Notes: a model not told the origin generated them from the sequence alone. Shown: positions 28-7,924, numbered from the stretch's first letter. The stretch is DNA of 7,924 bases from an archaeon (GCA_037147375.1 JBAWVI010000043.1:1-7924); one strand, 5' to 3'. A program made the numbers and translations.

Positions 28-2268
28 TTACCATTGTTTGAATATTGGTGTAAACGGAAATCCAAATGAAGTTCCTTCAATTTTTCCTTCTATATAATAT
101 TGCTGTCCTGTACAATATGGTTTTGATTCTTTATCTAATGATTTATTAAGTATATATTCTGGATTATCATACCAAAATAAATTTTCTGGTTTAATTACAT
201 ATTGATATAATCCTGTCTTCGAATCAAATACTCCATTTATTTTTGCTTTGTTTCTATAAAGTGGGTACCCAGAATAGATTGGATTAACTAAGCCAAGCTT
301 ATTACCAGTTGTACTTGCATAATAATAAATATTAAGATCATTTGCATTAATGTTTCCATCAATTGTAGAGTATATTGAATAGCTTCCAGCTATCTTTGAA
401 GATGGTTCATCTAAATCACAATAATTACAAGTTAAGTTTGTAGGTGCTTCATAATTAAAATCCTGAATTCCATAAAAATTAATACTATTAACAACATCAG
501 AACTCATGTTTAATACATTAAGATTTAGATTATGTGCATAAAAATCATATTGATTAAGACCTTTTGCTCCAATAAAACATCCATTAATATTTATTTTACT
601 ATCTTCTATATTTTCTTTACGTAATAAATGTATTGTAGAAGGAAGAAAACTATTTGGTCTTAAATAATTTACAATAAAATCATTTGATGTTATTGAGTTT
701 TTAGAATTAAAACTATTAATACTTATGCTATCTTCTTTTTTATTATCAAGGTAATCAATAATTATTTTATTAACGTTTCCATCCTTTCCATCAACTGGGT
801 TCTCAAGGCATCCAGTTTTAAAACCTTTATTTCCACTTGTTAAAGTTAGATTCATATCATCTGAATTATTATAAATAAAATTTACATTTAAATCATAAAC
901 ATTTCCACCATTACCTCCAGAACCATCTTTACCAGATGCACAATCAGGAAAATCATCACATCCACACCCATGATTATACTTTGTTCCTCCATTACCACCT
1001 TTTCCAGGAGTTACATTAAAATTAAGGATACCTTTATTATAAATCAAATCTAAATTACTGTAATTAATATCTGGCCAATTTAATAATAGTCCAAAATAAA
1101 CATTTCCACCATCACGTCCACTTCCAGCAGCTGCATAATCTTTTGTAAAATTGTGTCCACCATGATCAAAACCAGTAAGTCCTCCATTCCCCCCATTACC
1201 AGTAATTAGATTAACATTTAAATTTCCATCAACATTGTTTTTTAAATTATTTAATTTATAAAATACATGCCCACCTGTTCCACCCCAACCTCCATCTCCA
1301 ACTGGTGCTTGCTTACAGGAATCCTTGTCACAAGATTCTTGACCAACACCTCCATTCCCTCCAAAACCACTTTTTATTTCTAAATTTAGGTTCCCATTAT
1401 TTTCTAAATAATTTAAGATTAAAGTTGAAGAACCACCACTATTTGGAGTCCCAGCATCTAATACATCATCTTTAGTTCCATTCCCAGTAGGAGAATAACC
1501 ATCAGCAGAATCTCCACCAATTATTGAAAGATTAAAATCATTACTATTATTTACTATACTTTGTCCAACTAAAATTGCAGGATAACCTCTTGTTAAATAC
1601 AAACAATATGAATCATTACTTACACCTTGATAGGTTTTTGCAGACTTTACTTGTATAAAACTATTTGAATCAACTGCAATCTCAATATTATTAAAATTTA
1701 ATTGAACACCATAGTATATTGTCCAATCGTTTTGTGCAACACATTTTGACTTCGTGTCTTCATTTACATCAATAGATAAAGTTCTAGTCAATCTAATTAG
1801 ATTAATATCACTTATATCTAAAATTCCAGGAGATGCATTTGAGGTTGATGTTGAATTAAATGTAATTTTTTTTTCAATTAGGGTTAATGAATCAATTTTA
1901 TTTTCTGGATTTGCATTTTTTATATAAAGTGTATTTCCAATAGTAGAGCTACTTAATTTAAAGTCAATATACACTAAAACATTTACATTAACTTTTTTTA
2001 AACCACATTTGTCATTTGTTTTAAAAACTAAATCTTTATCCTGTAAAAATAATGTATTTGATGTTGTGCTTATTAAATTGAAATCACAATCAATTAAACA
2101 ATCTGACATGAATATCTCTGTATTTGGTATTGGAGTATTATATTCATCTGATGATACACATACATCACATTCTGTAGTTGACATGTTTGAACAACTAGTT
2201 GAAGCAAATATAAATGAACTAAACATTAACATAAAACAGATTATAATTAATTTTTTTATTAAATTCAT
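28..2268 (-). CDS. Secreted Gly/Asn-rich beta-solenoid-like surface protein (746 aa); family not recognised
   Basis: Uninterrupted 746-codon ORF with ATG at 2266-2268 and TAA at 28-30. The N-terminus is a Sec-type signal peptide, MNLIKKLIIICFMLMFSSFIFA|STS. An AGGA motif (RC of tcct, 2280-2283) lies 11 nt upstream of the ATG and directly after the stop of the preceding gene, which suggests co-transcription. There are 18 Cys after the signal peptide. Five degenerate Gly-rich coils span aa 244-505. NLxLxI-type strand motifs recur through the rest of the protein. The product call is a fold-level inference only. Confidence 0.88.
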   Translation of the reverse strand: MNLIKKLIIICFMLMFSSFIFASTSCSNMSTTECDVCVSSDEYNTPIPNTEIFMSDCLIDCDFNLISTTSNTLFLQDKDLVFKTNDKCGLKKVNVNVLVYIDFKLSSSTIGNTLYIKNANPENKIDSLTLIEKKITFNSTSTSNASPGILDISDINLIRLTRTLSIDVNEDTKSKCVAQNDWTIYYGVQLNFNNIEIAVDSNSFIQVKSAKTYQGVSNDSYCLYLTRGYPAILVGQSIVNNSNDFNLSIIGGDSADGYSPTGNGTKDDVLDAGTPNSGGSSTLILNYLENNGNLNLEIKSGFGGNGGVGQESCDKDSCKQAPVGDGGWGGTGGHVFYKLNNLKNNVDGNLNVNLITGNGGNGGLTGFDHGGHNFTKDYAAAGSGRDGGNVYFGLLLNWPDINYSNLDLIYNKGILNFNVTPGKGGNGGTKYNHGCGCDDFPDCASGKDGSGGNGGNVYDLNVNFIYNNSDDMNLTLTSGNKGFKTGCLENPVDGKDGNVNKIIIDYLDNKKEDSISINSFNSKNSITSNDFIVNYLRPNSFLPSTIHLLRKENIEDSKININGCFIGAKGLNQYDFYAHNLNLNVLNMSSDVVNSINFYGIQDFNYEAPTNLTCNYCDLDEPSSKIAGSYSIYSTIDGNINANDLNIYYYASTTGNKLGLVNPIYSGYPLYRNKAKINGVFDSKTGLYQYVIKPENLFWYDNPEYILNKSLDKESKPYCTGQQYYIEGKIEGTSFGFPFTPIFKQW
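754..1539 (-). repeat. Protein-level degenerate repeat array, about 5 coils of roughly 50-65 aa, each with two Gly-rich turns
   Basis: Coil starts are DFNLSIIGG (aa 244), NLNLEIKSGFGGNGG (293), NLNVNLITGNGGNGG (349), ILNFNVTPGKGGNGG (414) and MNLTLTSGNKG (472). Each coil has a second motif: GGSSTLILNYL, GGTGGHVFYKLNNL, GRDGGNVYFGLLLN, GGNGGNVYDLNVNF and GKDGNVNKIIIDYL. The pentapeptide GGNGG occurs four times; one copy was checked against the DNA at 1348-1362 (acctccattccctcc). Confidence 0.7.
2203..2268 (-). other. Signal peptide coding segment of the 746-aa protein (aa 1-22)
   Basis: A KK-containing n-region is followed by the hydrophobic core LIIICFMLMFSSFIF and a small residue at -1 (IFA|S). 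The cleavage site is predicted by eye. Confidence 0.6.
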
Positions 2269-2286: not shown

Positions 2287-2988
2287 TTACTTAAATAACC
2301 TAAATGGTAATGATATATTTTTATCTTCATTTAAACCAGAACCATATACTAAATTAAAGAAAAACTTATATGCTTCTAAATAATTTTCAGTAATAGCTGG
2401 ATTTAAATATATAGCAAATGAATTTTTATCACTATCACTACTAATAATATTAAATATATCTAAAGAAGAAGATACAATTGTATCATCCCATTTTCTAATT
2501 GAAAGGTTAGTTGTATTTGTGGTTTCATTAAGCTCAACATAAGCTCCACCAACAACCTTAATATTTCCAAATACAACTGGATTAACTAACAGATCTTTAT
2601 CTGTAATTTGATATGGTGCTGAATTATTATATGGAATACATTCACCATTATACTTATATTCATTTAAAGAACAACTACGATAATAAGAAGCATTACAATC
2701 CCCAAAACAGCTACTATATGTTTCTCTTGGAGGAGTACAGATACCATCTCCACAATTCCAACAATCTTCTGGACAACTTGCTAATGTTTCTCCAAATCCA
2801 CAATCTGCATTACCGCATTCCCAAACTCCACAAGGTGGACTACAAACTAGATGACAATTATAAAAGATACCATGTGTTTCTATACATTGATTAACACAAT
2901 CAGTACAAGATTCTGCAGAAATAGTTCTAAAAAATAAGGTAAATATAATTAAAGTTAAGATAGTTATAATTAATTTAAAATATTTCAT
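2287..2988 (-). CDS. Secreted protein (233 aa) with an extremely Cys-rich N-terminal domain and a Cys-free C-terminal domain; family not recognised
   Basis: 233-codon ORF with ATG at 2986-2988 and TAA at 2287-2289. Signal peptide is MKYFKLIITILTLIIFTLFFRTISA|ES. There are 16 Cys between aa 28 and 117, including two tandem 4-Cys modules. No Cys occurs from aa 118 to 233. Only a weak purine-rich motif (GAGAT) precedes the ATG. Confidence 0.85.
   Translation of the reverse strand: MKYFKLIITILTLIIFTLFFRTISAESCTDCVNQCIETHGIFYNCHLVCSPPCGVWECGNADCGFGETLASCPEDCWNCGDGICTPPRETYSSCFGDCNASYYRSCSLNEYKYNGECIPYNNSAPYQITDKDLLVNPVVFGNIKVVGGAYVELNETTNTTNLSIRKWDDTIVSSSLDIFNIISSDSDKNSFAIYLNPAITENYLEAYKFFFNLVYGSGLNEDKNISLPFRLFK
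2914..2988 (-). other. Signal peptide coding segment of the 233-aa protein (aa 1-25)
   Basis: A K-containing n-region is followed by a long hydrophobic core and an ISA|E site, predicted by eye. Confidence 0.6.
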
Positions 2989-3110: not shown

Positions 3111-3353
3111 TTATCTTATGCTTGAAGGGCATTCTCTTGCAATACATATGCTTCCTGCTCCACAATCAGCTTGTGAAAAGCAAGATCCATTACATGTTTG
3201 TTTTAATGAATTCCAACAAATACTGTTAGATGTTTGTTTTGGTTTAGCAAAACTATCTGTGTTTGTTGTATTCCAAAACACTTGATATCCAACTAAGATT
3301 CCAAGTATAATTAGTGTGGTTGTAACTAAAAGTAACTTACTGTTTGTTTTCAT
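3111..3353 (-). CDS. Small membrane-anchored or secreted 6-Cys protein (80 aa)
   Basis: ATG at 3351-3353 and TAA at 3111-3113. A strong SD lies 7 nt upstream. The start is 27 nt after the giant ORF stop. Hydrophobic segment LLLVTTTLIILGILVGYQVFW spans aa 7-27. A polar linker follows, then C46-x7-C54-x3-C58-x5-C64-x5-C70-x4-C75. Confidence 0.75.
   Translation of the reverse strand: MKTNSKLLLVTTTLIILGILVGYQVFWNTTNTDSFAKPKQTSNSICWNSLKQTCNGSCFSQADCGAGSICIARECPSSIR
3273..3335 (-). other. N-terminal hydrophobic anchor or signal segment of the 80-aa protein (aa 7-27)
   Basis: LLLVTTTLIILGILVGYQVFW follows MKTNSK. There is no obvious AxA cleavage site, so it may be an uncleaved signal anchor. Confidence 0.55.
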
Positions 3354-3380: not shown

Positions 3381-6300
3381 TTATTTCAATCTATCTTCTG
3401 GTCCAATTGTATAATTAACGTTATTATTATATATTGCAACTGGATTCCAAAAGAACTCTGAATATGTTCCATCTGGTGAATTTGTAACACAGATATTATT
3501 GTTTTCTATGTTATCAAATACATCCTTAATTGAATTTAAGTTAATTGCACTATTTCCTGGTAAACCAATTGATGAACTGAAGTTATCTCCAGCAATACTT
3601 AATCTTCCTTCAGTTGATTTTGAATTAAGTGAATAGTTATTACTTGATGGTGTATAGAAAGTTGATCTTAAGTATATATTTCCTTTTGAGTTAACAACAG
3701 GCCATTCAAGCTTATAGCTTGATGTTACTCTTTCATCAGGATCTGCTGCTACATCATAAGTATTATTAAATACTGAGTAGATATAATCTCCTGAATAATC
3801 AGAACCATCTCCAACTCCATTCCACTTAGTTAAGCTAACAGCACCAAACATTGGTTCAGAACTACTACTATCAACTAATTGATAATAGATAGAGAATGGT
3901 TTAAGGCTTTCATTAACTACTTTCATAAGAACTGGTGTTGGTATGCTTGGAGAAAAGATTAATCTAGTTTGATCTCCTGATTCAGAAACAACCTTAAGAA
4001 CTGATCCTCTAGATTCAACTTCTGAGTTAAGCTTAAAGAAATCTTGTTCGTTTTCAACTGTAAGATATTTTACTGGGTTAGAACCTGAATCTCCATTAGT
4101 TCTTAGATCATTATCCTTAATTTTAGTTATTAATACATTATCTCCTAAATAAGATAAGCCATAACCTTGTCTATTGTATCCATTTTCTTCATAACCTACA
4201 AATCCATCGAATGGTAGTCTATAAAATACACTATTGTCTTGTGGACCTTTAAGATATGTTAAGGTAACAAATACATTTACATCAACCTTATCTCCTGCAG
4301 TTACAAACTTCCAATCATTGTTATTAAACATTAAATCTATTCTTACATTATATAATCCAGGAGTTTTAACTTGGACTCCATTATTACTTGAAGAATATCT
4401 TAAATCAAATGTAGTATTATCTTTAAATAATGGAGATAAATAACCACGACTATAAGTTTCTGGTGAAGACATAAATGAATATGACCCAAGTCCTTGGTCA
4501 ATTGATGCTTTTCCTCCATATGCTTTATCAAATGCATCTTGGAAATTAGTATTGTAGTTGTCTGTAATTAAGTATGCATTGAATGATAATGTAGTTTTTA
4601 ATAAATTAATATCCTCTTGTGACCATTCAGATTTAACGTTGTTTGGATATTGTTCTTTATTAAACCACATATCTATGTAATCAGTTCCATTAAATTGAAC
4701 TGTTGTTGCAGGAACTTGACAACCTGTTGCTGCTGCTGGATATAATCCTAAAGTTACATTTGTATTAAATGTAACATATTCTGCAGCTCCACCAGTATAT
4801 GTAATCTTTAATGGTAAAGAATCACCAAGTATTCCTTCTGGATAAGTAAATATAATTTCACTTGTGTTATCATTTCCTATTGGTATATTTATATCTTTAT
4901 TATATGTATGATTTCCTGTTGCTACAACAGTTTCAGAAACAAACTCTCCAGTTGTTAGATCTCTTGTTTCAATTGATGCAACATCTTTATCTCCAAGACT
5001 TATTGAAACTGATCCAGGAATTTCTGCATTTGTTCTATTTTCAATAATAACTTTAATTCTTAATTTATTTACATCAGTTTGTAAATTTACATTTGATATC
5101 CCAATCTTTCCTGCTGGAATTGTATTATTTACGCTTGATGGACTTGCTGATACTTTATATGTTCCTTCAAAAATCTTATCACTTACTTGTTGATAGCTAA
5201 GTGGGCAAGAAATATTTGAACGTTGACTATCCAATAACTTCTGTGTTGAATCAATTCTATTAACAACCATTTGTGATAATTGTACAGCATCACAATATGT
5301 TTCTGTACATTTATTTGTATTACTAAAATCTTGCCAATCCCAATCAAATGAAACATTTGGAACTGCACCTGGACCAGTCTTTCCAATCTTATCAGTGTCT
5401 GTTGAACAAGAATACACATTTAAGTCAACATTTGCAATTTCTTGTGTAGGTGCTTCATGGAATTGGAATCTAAATTTACCATTTGTACCTATTGGTTTTG
5501 CATCTATAAATGCAGGATCAACATTATCAATAGTATCATCAAGTGTTGGATAGAAAATCATTGTCTTGTATATCCCAAGAGTTGATGAATTAGATAATAA
5601 TTCTTTTACAGAATCATTTAATTTAAATTTAAGAGATTTCATACCTGCCTGATCTGGCCAAATTACATTATCATATTTACATATTACATATGTATTATAT
5701 ATTAAATCTAATTTTTGTCTATTCCCTTTTGTACCTGGACACTTTGTTTTAAATAAAAAAGATGATTCTTTATTCTCAACTTCTAAACCACTACAAGTAC
5801 TTTCTCCAGTATTATACATTTGTGTCTGATACGAAGCTCCATTTAAAATAAATAATTCTTGATGAGATTTACCAGTACACTTAGCCATTTCATTACTTAT
5901 TTCTTCTTCTTTTGCTAATTTACCATATGCATACATATGTTGTGAATAATATACAAAATATCTTGAACCTGTTATATCAAAAACATTAATTAACTCATCA
6001 GAAGTTTCTTCAATTTCAGATATATTAATTTCCTTTACTACTTCTAACCCTGGATTTTTATAAACGTCTGAAACATCTAAACTATAACTCGTTAATTCTG
6101 GAGTAAAAGCAGAATATTGACTAGGTAAAATGATAGCAACAACTGCTGCAGCAACAACTGCAACACCAGCTATTATCCACCCCAACACAGGTACGGCTGC
6201 AGCTAATATTGCTCCTCCAAGTAATTCTAGAGTAATTAGAGTAATAAGTGCACCAGCAGCTGCACCAGCAAGTGTACCACCAATCATCATTCCTGCACTA

Positions 6301-7924
6301 ACACCATCAGAACCACCATTTACTAAACTTCCATCTTTATTAAATAACATTTTATCAAATGTATTCCCAGAATCACTAGCCATAAATTTACTAAATCCAC
6401 TATTATCATTTTCAGCTTTATTAGTTGCATAATCCCAAGGAGTCTTGCTTATATCCTTATTATATAACTTTACAGGCATTGTTGTTGAATCTCCTGCTAT
6501 CTCAATAAATGGATCTTCCATGTAAAGAATATCTTTAACATTTACTTTTAATGGTCTAGGTACAGTTGCAACAGCTTTATCATTGTTATTTAATGATTCT
6601 ATCTTTACTTCAATTGTGTAAGCTCCAGGTACTTCTGGCTTTCTTACTGGAATAATCTTTTCTGAATCGCTTGCATTAAATCTATACTCATAATCTCCTT
6701 CTGGTCTATCATCATAGTTTTCATATGATAATCCACTTGAACTGTCTTTCATTCCACCTGAAAACGTTACTCTAAATCTTCCTTTGTCTGCACAGGTGTT
6801 CTTAATTGTTAGATCTTTTGTTTGTCCAACTATGATTGAAGAATCAATAACAAACATTCCTGCATCTCCAATTTCTTTAGTTCCATCATAGAACTTAAAG
6901 CAATCTGAAATCTCCATAATATTTATTTCTGTATTAAGAAGGATTTCTCCATCTCCATTATTTACATAAGCAAGACCAGATTCAGTTTCAACTTGTCCAT
7001 TTAAATAAATCTTTGTTTTAACAAGTCCAAACTTTATTCCACCAGAACTATAATTTAATATACCACCATATAATCTATCTGCTTCTACTCCTTCTATTAC
7101 TGTTTTATATACCCCTTCAGCAAGTCTTATTGTGCTAGCATCTATTGTTAAATCATAATAACCATATTTATCTCCTTCTGATAAGATCTTTGCTCTAATG
7201 TTCTTTAATTTTAATGGAGTTTCTGGACTATCAAATGCTCTACAATTATTTATTATTGTAAATGAAATAGATTGAGATCCACCTGAGTTAATTGTAGTTA
7301 CCCATGGCTTAACATATCCTTGTGCTACAAGACAATTGTCTGTTGCAACACCTTTACCAACAGAGATTGTAGTTTTAATTGGAATATTAAATGGATATTT
7401 TGTTCCTCCATCTTTTGTAACGTGTCCTGTAATACTACCAAGAACAACTTGATTTTCAACAAGATTCTTTGAATCTTCTCCAGGACTCATTTTAATTTCT
7501 AAAGTTTTCTTTCCTCCTACAGGAATAATAAATGCTCCACCAGTAGTAACTTGTGAATTAAGGTATGTGTGTGTTTGAGCTACGTTTATGAAACTTGCAT
7601 AATCAAATGAGAAGTCTGTATCTCCAAATTCATTTAAAGTTAAATCATAATTAGTTAAGTTTAATATTTCAATACTTTCAGTATCTCCTGTTAAACTATT
7701 CTTGTTTATGTTTATTGCAACAGGATTATCAGTTGTTACTGGTGATGAACTAAAAAGAACTGAAACTATATTTGCATCAATTGTAATTTCTTTTCTCTCT
7801 GCAAAATATCCGCTTTTTAAAGCTTCAATAATTATAGTTTCTCCAACTACAAGTGGAGGCATGCTTAAGTTTAGTTTACCACTTGAGTCTGTGTGCTTTT
7901 CTAAAACGATTGCATTTTCATATC
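3381..7924 (-). CDS. Giant surface or membrane protein, 5'-partial (more than 1513 codons visible); multi-beta-sandwich ectodomains flank an internal Gly/Ala-rich hydrophobic hairpin
   Basis: TAA at 3381-3383. The track starts the ORF at the ATG at 7860-7862. I translated 7863-7924 on the minus strand in the same frame as YENAIVLEKHTDSSGKLNLS with no stop. No SD precedes that ATG, so the gene probably begins beyond the window. TDSSGKLNLSMPPLVVGETIIIEALKSGYFAERKEITID resembles the second half of a PEGA / carboxypeptidase-regulatory-like beta-sandwich. CARDB-like strand patterns occur at GDTESIEILNLTNYDLTL, GGSQSISFTIINNC, GQTKDLTIKNTC and LRIKVIIENRTNAEIPGSVSISLG (the last within aa 915-1040, nt 4743-5120). 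There are 14 Cys in the visible part. No catalytic motif was recognised. Confidence 0.9.
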   Translation of the reverse strand, partial: YENAIVLEKHTDSSGKLNLSMPPLVVGETIIIEALKSGYFAERKEITIDANIVSVLFSSSPVTTDNPVAININKNSLTGDTESIEILNLTNYDLTLNEFGDTDFSFDYASFINVAQTHTYLNSQVTTGGAFIIPVGGKKTLEIKMSPGEDSKNLVENQVVLGSITGHVTKDGGTKYPFNIPIKTTISVGKGVATDNCLVAQGYVKPWVTTINSGGSQSISFTIINNCRAFDSPETPLKLKNIRAKILSEGDKYGYYDLTIDASTIRLAEGVYKTVIEGVEADRLYGGILNYSSGGIKFGLVKTKIYLNGQVETESGLAYVNNGDGEILLNTEINIMEISDCFKFYDGTKEIGDAGMFVIDSSIIVGQTKDLTIKNTCADKGRFRVTFSGGMKDSSSGLSYENYDDRPEGDYEYRFNASDSEKIIPVRKPEVPGAYTIEVKIESLNNNDKAVATVPRPLKVNVKDILYMEDPFIEIAGDSTTMPVKLYNKDISKTPWDYATNKAENDNSGFSKFMASDSGNTFDKMLFNKDGSLVNGGSDGVSAGMMIGGTLAGAAAGALITLITLELLGGAILAAAVPVLGWIIAGVAVVAAAVVAIILPSQYSAFTPELTSYSLDVSDVYKNPGLEVVKEINISEIEETSDELINVFDITGSRYFVYYSQHMYAYGKLAKEEEISNEMAKCTGKSHQELFILNGASYQTQMYNTGESTCSGLEVENKESSFLFKTKCPGTKGNRQKLDLIYNTYVICKYDNVIWPDQAGMKSLKFKLNDSVKELLSNSSTLGIYKTMIFYPTLDDTIDNVDPAFIDAKPIGTNGKFRFQFHEAPTQEIANVDLNVYSCSTDTDKIGKTGPGAVPNVSFDWDWQDFSNTNKCTETYCDAVQLSQMVVNRIDSTQKLLDSQRSNISCPLSYQQVSDKIFEGTYKVSASPSSVNNTIPAGKIGISNVNLQTDVNKLRIKVIIENRTNAEIPGSVSISLGDKDVASIETRDLTTGEFVSETVVATGNHTYNKDINIPIGNDNTSEIIFTYPEGILGDSLPLKITYTGGAAEYVTFNTNVTLGLYPAAATGCQVPATTVQFNGTDYIDMWFNKEQYPNNVKSEWSQEDINLLKTTLSFNAYLITDNYNTNFQDAFDKAYGGKASIDQGLGSYSFMSSPETYSRGYLSPLFKDNTTFDLRYSSSNNGVQVKTPGLYNVRIDLMFNNNDWKFVTAGDKVDVNVFVTLTYLKGPQDNSVFYRLPFDGFVGYEENGYNRQGYGLSYLGDNVLITKIKDNDLRTNGDSGSNPVKYLTVENEQDFFKLNSEVESRGSVLKVVSESGDQTRLIFSPSIPTPVLMKVVNESLKPFSIYYQLVDSSSSEPMFGAVSLTKWNGVGDGSDYSGDYIYSVFNNTYDVAADPDERVTSSYKLEWPVVNSKGNIYLRSTFYTPSSNNYSLNSKSTEGRLSIAGDNFSSSIGLPGNSAINLNSIKDVFDNIENNNICVTNSPDGTYSEFFWNPVAIYNNNVNYTIGPEDRLK
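6123..6299 (-). other. Internal 59-residue hydrophobic Gly/Ala-rich segment (aa 522-580), predicted transmembrane helical hairpin
   Basis: The segment is SAGMMIGGTLAGAAAGALITLITLELLGGAILAAAVPVLGWIIAGVAVVAAAVVAIILP. Codon positions were verified against the DNA: AGT for S522 at 6297-6299 and CCT for P580 at 6123-6125. The only charged residue is E545. GxxxG spacings occur at G524/G528 and at G529/G533/G537. Confidence 0.7.

Follow-up and report, generated by a model that had tools for sequence, protein, structure and literature searches.

A probable membrane hairpin inside a giant surface protein encoded on an archaeal contig

Introduction

Hydrophobic stretches of at least ~40 residues with turn-propensity residues at their centre can form transmembrane (TM) helical hairpins, and tight helical hairpins need turn-forming residues only (PMC8657811). 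Large membrane-anchored proteins have been described in the complete genome of Candidatus (Ca.) Forterrea multitransposorum, where five of them, each longer than 1,800 amino acids (aa), lie in a 42-kb region (Probst & Banfield 2018, PMC5905446). That account gives the five a single sentence and a cartoon, where they figure as putative cell-cell interaction proteins anchored at the N-terminus, and assigns ~5% of the ~0.84-Mb genome to the giant proteins and their cluster neighbours. Here we examine contig JBAWVI010000043.1 from an archaeal assembly (GCA_037147375.1), a stretch of 7,924 bp whose entire length we call the window. It is AT-rich (29% guanine plus cytosine (GC) content; 0.294) and encodes part of a giant surface protein in which a Gly/Ala-rich hydrophobic element of 59 residues separates two large Cys-containing regions. 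Judged from sequence and family comparisons, this element is probably an internal helical hairpin in the archaeon’s own cytoplasmic membrane, possibly a re-entrant one in orthologues with short arms.

A preliminary description of the window had interpreted the same element as a glycine-zipper hairpin between two ectodomains, with a viral-type fusion peptide among the possible roles. The membrane hairpin between two ectodomains is upheld by the analysis below; the glycine zipper as the source of function and the viral-type fusion peptide are not.

Results and discussion

The hydrophobic element

Read on the minus strand from 6299 down to 6123, the element (aa 522-580) has the sequence SAGMMIGGTLAGAAAGALITLITLELLGGAILAAAVPVLGWIIAGVAVVAAAVVAIILP. 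Its composition is dominated by five residues (A16 G9 L9 I8 V7), with Gly, Ala, Ile, Leu and Val together filling 49/59 positions vs 33% in the remaining protein (binomial P ~3e-15). The almost pure G/A/I/L/V segment of the preliminary description is therefore present as described and lies far beyond chance. This is the sole region of the window protein in which 19-residue Kyte-Doolittle hydropathy exceeds 1.6, the best value elsewhere being 1.08. A slightly wider stretch of 62 residues, G520-S581, holds one charged residue, E546 (previously numbered E545). The nearest charges outside the element are D519 and E589, and no Lys or Arg occurs between K509 and K602, in agreement with the earlier remark that neither lies in or next to the segment.

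The element is also the GC maximum of the window, at 0.452 compared with 0.294 overall and 0.401 in the next best stretch, and the locally GC-rich island noted before is thus confirmed. GC content at first and second codon positions (GC1/GC2) is 0.68/0.54 in the element vs 0.41/0.37 in the remaining coding sequence (CDS), and at third positions (GC3) 0.136 vs 0.124. The island arises because of its Ala (GCN) and Gly (GGN) codons, which raise GC1 and GC2 and leave GC3 unchanged. Horizontal transfer or foreign DNA as the source of the island was rejected on the strength of the unchanged GC3. Antisense to the Ala/Gly-rich stretch runs a plus-strand open reading frame (ORF) of 100 aa (6130-6432), which we rejected as a gene and regard as the antisense shadow of the GC-rich Ala/Gly codon run.

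Table 1 Features of the 7,924-bp window, with coordinates counted from its first nucleotide
Feature	Coordinates	Strand	Description
746-aa secreted protein	28..2268	minus	Syntenic with the 724-aa gene of locus L001; 39% identity, E = 1e-106
233-aa secreted Cys-rich protein	2287..2988	minus	Synteny with L001, where a 155-aa gene follows the orthologue; 41% identity over 125 aa, E = 3e-21
80-aa ORF	3111..3353	minus	Same direction as the giant gene; Cys-rich tail and, N-terminally, a TM or signal sequence
Giant surface-protein partial CDS	3381..7922	minus	C-terminal 1,513 codons plus stop; frame open at contig end
Conserved C-terminal module, aa 581-1493	3384..6122	minus	Beta-rich, ten invariant Cys; last ~450-700 aa common to at least 602 cluster representatives
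Hydrophobic Gly/Ala-rich element, aa 522-580	6123..6299	minus	59 residues; from hydropathy, composition and alignment
Proposed second arm TM-B, ~V557-L579	6126..6194	minus	G561-W562-x3-G566; most hydrophobic part
Proposed turn, E546-A556	6195..6227	minus	Turn formers E546, G549, G550; aligns with the semi-conserved ‘GP’ of orthologues
Proposed first arm TM-A, ~G524-L545	6228..6293	minus	Inferred boundaries; carries G524/G528 and G529/G533/G537; the variable arm in homologues
Weak 12-nt (4-codon) tandem repeat	6246..6283	minus	3.2 copies, 76% match; coincides with the G529/G533/G537 register
Membrane-distal side	6453..7922	minus	Tandem immunoglobulin (Ig)-like beta-sandwich domains; Cys pairs C177/C207 and C321/C357

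Hydrophobicity was estimated with crude, position-independent 19-residue sums on the Hessa scale, with hand-coded scales and with windows below 3 counted as TM-like. On this measure the window protein scores +0.2 at aa 539-557 and -2.1 at aa 560-578 (-2.06), two non-overlapping 19-mers whose values may point to membrane insertion. Computed for comparison, the fusion peptides of human immunodeficiency virus (HIV) gp41 and simian virus 5 (SV5) F give +2.1 to +2.2, and TM1 of the ATP synthase c subunit gives -0.5. The element also has the length and the turn residues described for transmembrane helical hairpins, with E546, G549, G550 and P558 at the centre of its 59 residues (PMC8657811). We therefore propose the two arms and the turn listed in Table 1.

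The giant protein and its orthologues

Residues are numbered from the first ATG of the giant ORF at 7862 (ORF 3381..7862, minus strand). No stop codon precedes this ATG (7863-7922, minus strand), and the frame remains open up to the end of the window at 7922. The product is a 100% match to the NCBI entry ‘hypothetical protein WCF78_03360, partial [archaeon]’. For comparison we assembled an orthologue set of 20 homologues (P0002-P0021) and an alignment of 18 sequences. Full-length orthologues span 2,438-2,518 aa, with two shorter sequences of 2,392 aa and, as a partial one, 2,092 aa, and their alignment covers the whole window protein at 32-63% identity. The open frame at the contig end, together with these longer orthologues, indicates that ~970 N-terminal residues are missing from the window protein, including the signal anchor and CarboxypepD_reg/SpaA-type domains, and that what remains is the C-terminal ~60% of a ~2,480-aa protein. 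In the full-length orthologues the element sits at ~aa 1,500-1,580 of ~2,480, or ~61% of the way in; its placement one third of the way into the protein, as first described, was an artefact of the truncated ORF. Pfam and NCBIfam scans of all four window proteins returned nothing above threshold, and the profile of the 18-sequence alignment matched no PDB sequence at E <= 1.

Across the 18-sequence alignment the element keeps its position between the same flanking motifs but not its sequence. The polar-free segment is 59-62 residues long in the window protein, ~40 residues in P0013, P0014 and P0016 (two arms of 15-16 residues around LLLLPGPW), and 76 to ~100 residues in P0004, P0008, P0010, P0011 and L015. 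It is absent from P0019 and reduced to a degenerate 14 residues in P0009 and L008, and these three, which have lost it, retain both flanks and remnants of the border motifs. A few features recur. A ‘GP’ turn is found at the columns of A554/A555 (Gly in 12/18, Pro in 14/18), where the window protein has AA and a Pro of its own, P558. The second arm commonly opens with a G-W-x3-G/A motif (G561 in 10/18, W562 in 8/18, G566 in 9/18) and is recurrently of TM length, with aromatic and acidic residues after it, for example SDYDID.

For a wider search, against 1.84 billion cluster representatives, we used a profile that starts 180 residues ahead of the element and runs to the C-terminus. At least 602 proteins matched at E <= 1e-3 and 322 at E <= 1e-30, most of them 2,300-2,600 aa long, with the distant matches aligning over the last 450-700 residues only. 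The few named matches are ‘hypothetical’ or ‘carboxypeptidase-like regulatory domain-containing’ proteins from archaeal metagenome-assembled genomes (MAGs). One further protein, P0027 (991 aa), starts at the hairpin and was considered as a case of gene fission at this site; it proved to be a contig-edge fragment, and the other short family matches are probably fragments too.

Across the family, a median of 850 residues (interquartile range 835-926) separates the end of the element from the C-terminus in proteins of 1,818-2,767 aa. This distance of ~850 aa is constant whatever the protein length, and the element therefore marks the N-terminal boundary of a conserved C-terminal module. Among the listed representatives, the 105 with 2,200 aa or more (proteins of 2,200-3,100 aa) were surveyed for TM-like windows. 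An N-terminal anchor was present in 104/105, and TM-like 19-residue windows occurred at the N-terminus and at aa 1,300-1,850 and nowhere else; the best windows elsewhere in family proteins have a median of +7.9.

Topology of the flanking regions

The window protein has 14 Cys, all of them invariant in 18 orthologues and at the positions first reported, with pairs spaced 20-36 residues apart on both sides of the element. Four lie upstream (177, 207, 321, 357) and ten downstream (662, 690, 708, 728, 819, 852, 857, 886, 1048, 1458). AlphaFold models were built for two overlapping constructs from 18-sequence alignments. The N-side model (m3a22f90de630) is a string of beta-sandwiches with a predicted local distance difference test score (pLDDT) of 80-92 over residues 50-470, and its Foldseek matches include tandem Ig-like, ASH or PapD-like arrays, CFA/I pilins, PrgB Ig-like domains, protocadherins, the SbsB S-layer protein and integrins. 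The C-side model is beta-rich and of moderate confidence (mean pLDDT 69), with domain-level matches to PrgB, FnBPA, integrin, antigen I/II and Cna-type adhesin domains. In the models, then, both flanks are strings of Ig-like beta-sandwich domains that resemble those of adhesins, cadherins and S-layer proteins. Precomputed Pfam matches in the N-terminal 1,000 residues of the orthologues are likewise to surface-protein beta-sandwich families (CarboxypepD_reg, SpaA, Big_1, SdrD_B).

A conserved tail of ~30 residues (MSF..KYQ.FLDKIN.R.PIK.LT.PLDK) opens the orthologues and leads into a strongly hydrophobic anchor at ~aa 30-60. Lys and Arg outnumber Asp and Glu before this anchor (K/R 295 vs D/E 231) and are outnumbered after it (K/R 118 vs D/E 221), a bias that indicates an N-in orientation. 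In 62 proteins the flanks of the element itself are net acidic: the upstream flank holds K/R 57 and D/E 86, often with a single Lys just before the last helix, and the 12 residues downstream hold K/R 41 and D/E 184. An acidic-Cys juxtamembrane motif (‘EDPC’, ‘DDPC’ or ‘DEDCHD’) follows the element in 32/62 proteins, among distant homologues P0033-P0139; in the close family, to which the window protein belongs, SDYDID or QYSAF stands in its place. In relatives without the element, both domains persist after the same N-in anchor, and the number of membrane passes in the element must therefore be even. N-glycosylation sequon density, considered as an extracellular marker, showed neither domain enriched over composition (z -1.2 to +3.1, mostly <2) and is uninformative because the proteome is rich in Asn, Ser and Thr. 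Taken together, the Cys invariance, the modelled Ig-like flanks, the N-in anchor, the acidic flanks and the element-less relatives lend indirect support to the earlier suggestion that both large domains are probably outside the cell and that the chain between them passes the membrane twice.

About 70 residues upstream of the element the window protein carries the sequence LYMEDPFIEI (aa 446-455; ~6480-6510, minus strand). Within the corresponding family motif, ‘LYMEDPFIEV’, Pro-Phe is invariant and Asp-Pro nearly so. In some surface proteins, Asp-Pro bonds are acid-labile or undergo autocleavage.

The hairpin model

We propose that the conserved N-in signal anchor would start Sec-dependent export of ~1,450 aa of Ig-like domains, and that the first arm of the element (~aa 524-545) would act as a stop-transfer sequence. 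A short turn, with no polar loop, would come next, and the second arm (~aa 557-579), the more hydrophobic of the two, would then re-initiate export, this time of the ~900-aa C-terminal module. Both giant regions would then end outside, the first as a loop with both of its ends tethered, the C-terminal module tethered by the hairpin at its own N-terminal boundary. The richness in Gly and Ala would allow two antiparallel helices to pack tightly around a very short turn. In orthologues with arms of 15-16 residues the hairpin may dip into the membrane as a re-entrant element instead of spanning it. An even number of passes leaves the sides of the flanks unchanged, and this topological neutrality would explain why the length, sequence and presence of the hairpin drift freely. 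We infer membrane insertion, the Sec pathway and the tethering role from the observed sequence features, family distribution, flank charges, Cys invariance and flank folds. The hairpin itself is most probably an ordinary accessory (second) membrane anchor.

Several observations weigh against this model. At the element site, 43/105 of the surveyed representatives (41%) have no TM-like window and 35/105 have one, with two in 25 and three in 2. The best window of the element has a family-wide median of +2.2, compared with -4.9 for the N-terminal anchors, and is thus marginal. The distant relative P0032 (aa 1490-1535) has a lone, very hydrophobic helix of 22 residues after KKKRK and no Gly/Ala-rich first arm, and so resembles a single internal N-in/C-out signal anchor, contrary to the logic of a hairpin. 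A confident hairpin is absent from the AlphaFold models: pLDDT over the element is 23-35 in both, the first arm is non-helical in both, and helix appears in the second arm only (aa 563-578 in one model, 568-576 in the other). At such pLDDT values, the packing of the hairpin and its helix boundaries are unreadable from the models. Neither model, though, packs the element on adjacent domains or buries it as an ordinary hydrophobic core, the picture to which the preliminary description had opposed its hairpin.

The turn of the window protein, finally, has no positive charge of its own, and this had been seen as an anomaly under the positive-inside rule. Many family members carry a Lys in or before the turn, including P0002, P0005 and the Ca. 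Forterrea orthologue (L014). Because orthologues have Lys there and tight hairpins require turn formers only, the missing charge in the window protein is not anomalous.

The model yields a domain map for the family, consisting of an N-in anchor, a ~1,450-aa Ig-like stalk, the internal hairpin and a ~850-930-aa C-terminal module with ten invariant Cys. The family is uncharacterised but large, with a module common to at least 602 protein clusters, and the hairpin helps to define its architecture.

Alternative explanations

The element may not be embedded in a membrane at all, and may instead be a translocated hydrophobic linker that serves in a homo-oligomeric core or partner contact, or a tolerated, indel-prone spacer. 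Extreme variation in length and sequence, from absence to ~100 aa with A/G/T/S runs such as ATTTTTIVATAAATATTTVATT in L015, would suit such a role, as would the marginal hydrophobicity of most relatives. Cryptic repeats at the codon level point in the same direction. A family of cryptic 27-nt direct repeats extends across 6127-6315, and with the 12-nt repeat at G529/G533/G537 it fits an indel-prone low-complexity tract. Lone-helix cases such as P0032 are topologically sensible on this reading, and only if the helix does not span. The cost is that 62 residues with E546 as their single charge would be exposed to water, and that no other site in proteins of 2,200-3,100 aa tolerates such hydrophobicity. 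The last helix, moreover, consistently has TM length, and after it comes an acidic flank of juxtamembrane-like character; AlphaFold offers no packing of the element on adjacent domains. We consider a location outside the membrane unlikely.

A membrane other than the archaeon’s own is the next candidate. The element could be exported, shielded and later inserted into the membrane of a host cell as part of DPANN cell-cell contact machinery, on the model of a fusion peptide, a translocator hairpin of type III secretion systems (T3SS) or the diphtheria-toxin TH8-9 hairpin. The organism cited in support lacks lipid and nucleotide synthesis, and the element is a Gly/Ala-rich segment at the distal end of a ~1,450-aa Ig-like stalk. 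Diphtheria toxin TH8-TH9 is a membrane-inserting hairpin with an acidic tip, and the lone acidic residue at the tip of the window hairpin recalls it; that tip residue varies in the family, being E, K or none. The family median of +2.2 falls within the range of the gp41 and SV5 F peptides (+2.1 to +2.2), class I fusion peptides (HIV gp41, paramyxovirus F), which are likewise Gly/Ala-rich and of marginal to moderate hydrophobicity. Such peptides have ~20-25 residues, in contrast with 59 residues in two arms here, and the second arm of the window protein, at -2.1, is more hydrophobic than they are and should integrate during export.

Other marks of fusion proteins are missing as well. No Lys or Arg, and hence no basic cleavage site, occurs within 12 residues upstream of the element, where the sequence is NKDGSLVNGGSDGV, nor is any other cleavage site recognisable there. 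No heptad-repeat helix follows the element; the sequence there is beta-rich, and the nearest long helix in the AlphaFold models is ~280 residues downstream. A TM-like window C-terminal to the element was found in 0/105 relatives. The search of viral structures in BFVD returned generic tail-fibre and beta-sandwich matches only (TM-scores <=0.1) and no named viral fusion protein. The suggestion of a viral fusion peptide in the preliminary description is accordingly unsupported.

T3SS translocators (PMC9993115) and diphtheria toxin TH8-TH9 are alike in that two hydrophobic helices form a hairpin midway along an exported protein of cell-cell contact. Their hairpins lie in alpha-helical proteins whose export bypasses Sec integration or keeps the hairpin buried, whereas the window hairpin stands in a beta-sandwich context behind a Sec-type signal anchor and has no conserved acidic tip. 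The element is, in addition, absent or degenerate in many relatives. Insertion into a host membrane, for all its biological appeal in the contact proteins of a symbiont, is thus doubtful, and it seems improbable that the element is the membrane-active tip of a DPANN host-contact device. If it were, the N-terminal anchor would sit in the symbiont, ~1,450 aa of Ig-like domains would bridge the intercellular gap, and the marginally hydrophobic Gly/Ala hairpin with the 850-aa C-terminal module would enter the host membrane to tether, perforate or fuse. Such a device would supply a molecular candidate for the cytoplasmic bridges that have been seen to join DPANN archaea with their hosts.

Processing at the element is a further idea, in which an archaeosortase-, rhomboid- or signal-peptidase-like enzyme would cleave at the hairpin, yielding an N-terminal fragment and a separately anchored C-terminal module. 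The second arm, with the semi-conserved GP before it, resembles an internal signal anchor and in P0032 is preceded by KKKRK, and the element does mark a module boundary at a fixed distance from the C-terminus. PGF-CTERM/archaeosortase and LPXTG/sortase signals combine a motif, a TM helix and a basic tail at the extreme C-terminus. The window element is followed by 913 residues and an acidic flank, unlike either signal. The 18-sequence alignment holds no conserved cleavage motif, and P0027, the sole apparent stand-alone C-terminal protein checked, is a contig-edge fragment. We hold cleavage at this site to be very improbable.

The glycine spacing that gave the element its first interpretation may be traced to local sequence history. 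Kim and colleagues reportedly described, in 2005, GxxxGxxxG glycine zippers in the transmembrane segments of channel and pore formers, and a conserved zipper face of this kind might drive a hairpin pore, as in VacA or other channel formers. G529-x3-G533-x3-G537 fits the published pattern, (G/A/S)xxxGxxxG, in a predicted membrane helix, with G524/G528 as a further pair, and the spacings reported earlier are therefore real. They are not clearly above composition. The element contains three GxxxG pairs (524/528, 529/533, 533/537) vs 1.17 expected by segment shuffling (P = 0.08), and a weak excess appears when the segment is widened to 62 residues (4 vs 1.39, P = 0.026). The Ala-rich small-xxx-small runs that had also been noted occur at chance level (11 vs 10.45 expected).

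The register is not conserved either, a point on which the earlier interpretation depended. Among the 18 aligned sequences, G528 is found in 2/18, G529 in 4/18, G533 in 7/18 and G537 in 1/18; a significant GxxxG excess is seen in 0/17 homologues, and six have no GxxxG at all. The sole recurrent Gly pair, G561/G566, has i,i+5 spacing. The GxxxG register of the window protein coincides with the 12-nt repeat and may be a lineage-specific by-product of 4-codon micro-duplication. As far as the aligned sequences go, the zipper is peculiar to the window sequence and a poor functional lead, and as a feature of the family it is largely refuted; an oligomerising or channel-forming zipper is accordingly given very little credence here.

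Equally hard to credit, and largely refuted in its single-pass form, is a one- or three-pass segment that would place the ~900-aa C-terminal module in the cytoplasm, for although 59 residues could make one tilted helix or three short ones and some relatives have one TM-like window, three helices of ~19 residues without any loops are implausible, element-less relatives keep the module behind an N-in signal anchor, and the module has ten invariant Cys paired like those of the N-side ectodomain, a strongly acidic leading flank and adhesin-like Ig folds.

Host lineage and gene neighbourhood

A scan of species-representative genomes found 13 loci, all in archaeal MAGs (Ca. Iainarchaeum, Ca. Diapherotrites, ‘archaeon’) together with the complete Ca. 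Forterrea multitransposorum genome. Judged by the company of its homologues, the window protein comes from an Iainarchaeota/Diapherotrites (DPANN) archaeon. The Ca. Forterrea orthologue (L014, CP045477.1 259811-269239) has 36-41% identity over a 1,153-aa query and the same hairpin.

In L001 (1-27431) the giant genes are co-directional, encoding 2,386, 1,759, 1,007, 2,476 (the orthologue), 155, 724 and 2,113 aa, and the cluster ends with two small polytopic membrane proteins of 128 and 113 aa. L002 and L003 show the same co-directional pattern. Each of the cluster products contains many Cys and starts with a signal anchor or signal peptide. A short cytoplasmic motif before the N-terminal anchor (..YY..LDKI..R.PIK.. 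/ IDPIDK.VPSF) is common to all giant paralogues, and was seen in P0002-P0021, P0032, P0057, P0063, P0095 and the L001 genes at 1504 and 20198. This shared motif could be a common targeting or docking signal for the products of the cluster.

Downstream of the giant gene, the window retains part of this gene order (Table 1). The 233-aa protein aligns with its L001 counterpart through the C-terminal 125 residues alone; its additional N-terminal module of ~85 residues, absent from the L001 protein, is extremely Cys-rich (CTDCVNQC...CGDGIC...). The 746-aa protein has Cys-rich ends and central Gly-rich GNGG/GGNGG repeats, and this Gly-rich region forms the second GC-rich patch of the window (~0.37 at 1101-1300). 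The 80-aa ORF gave sub-threshold matches only (DX module, conotoxin-like, Myxo Cys repeat), and no obvious counterpart stands at that position in L001.

The giant cluster to which the window family belongs is very probably the 42-kb region of Ca. Forterrea; the text of PMC5905446 gives no coordinates, and the correspondence is for that reason an indirect one. In the literature on DPANN surface proteins, nanotubes and attachment organelles we found no account of this family beyond the one sentence in that paper. For the way in which Diapherotrites/Iainarchaeota attach to other cells and exploit them, the proteins of the giant cluster are the obvious candidates.

Comparison with known systems

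The proposed hairpin most resembles translocon-inserted helical hairpins, such as the poly-Leu models of Monne/von Heijne and Bano-Polo/Mingarro (PMC8657811). It shares with them at least 40 hydrophobic residues, central E, G, G and P residues, a very short turn, both flanks on the same side of the membrane, and small residues for close antiparallel packing. A natural Gly/Ala-rich hairpin is found in ATP synthase subunit c, and the values of the two window arms (+0.2/-2.1) bracket that of c-subunit TM1 (-0.5). Subunit c is a small polytopic protein with a polar loop, RQP, whereas the window hairpin has no conserved polar loop and lies in the middle of a ~2,480-aa beta-rich surface protein. The window hairpin differs from both in that its length and presence are not conserved and in that it has no sequence similarity to any Pfam family.

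At the level of the whole protein, the closest described system is the giant cluster of Ca. Forterrea. The account in PMC5905446 makes no mention of a hydrophobic element inside the protein, a three-anchor topology or a conserved C-terminal module. Common to both are proteins of more than 1,800 aa, an N-terminal anchor (seen in the orthologues, the window copy being truncated), a co-directional cluster and the synteny of the genes downstream in the window.

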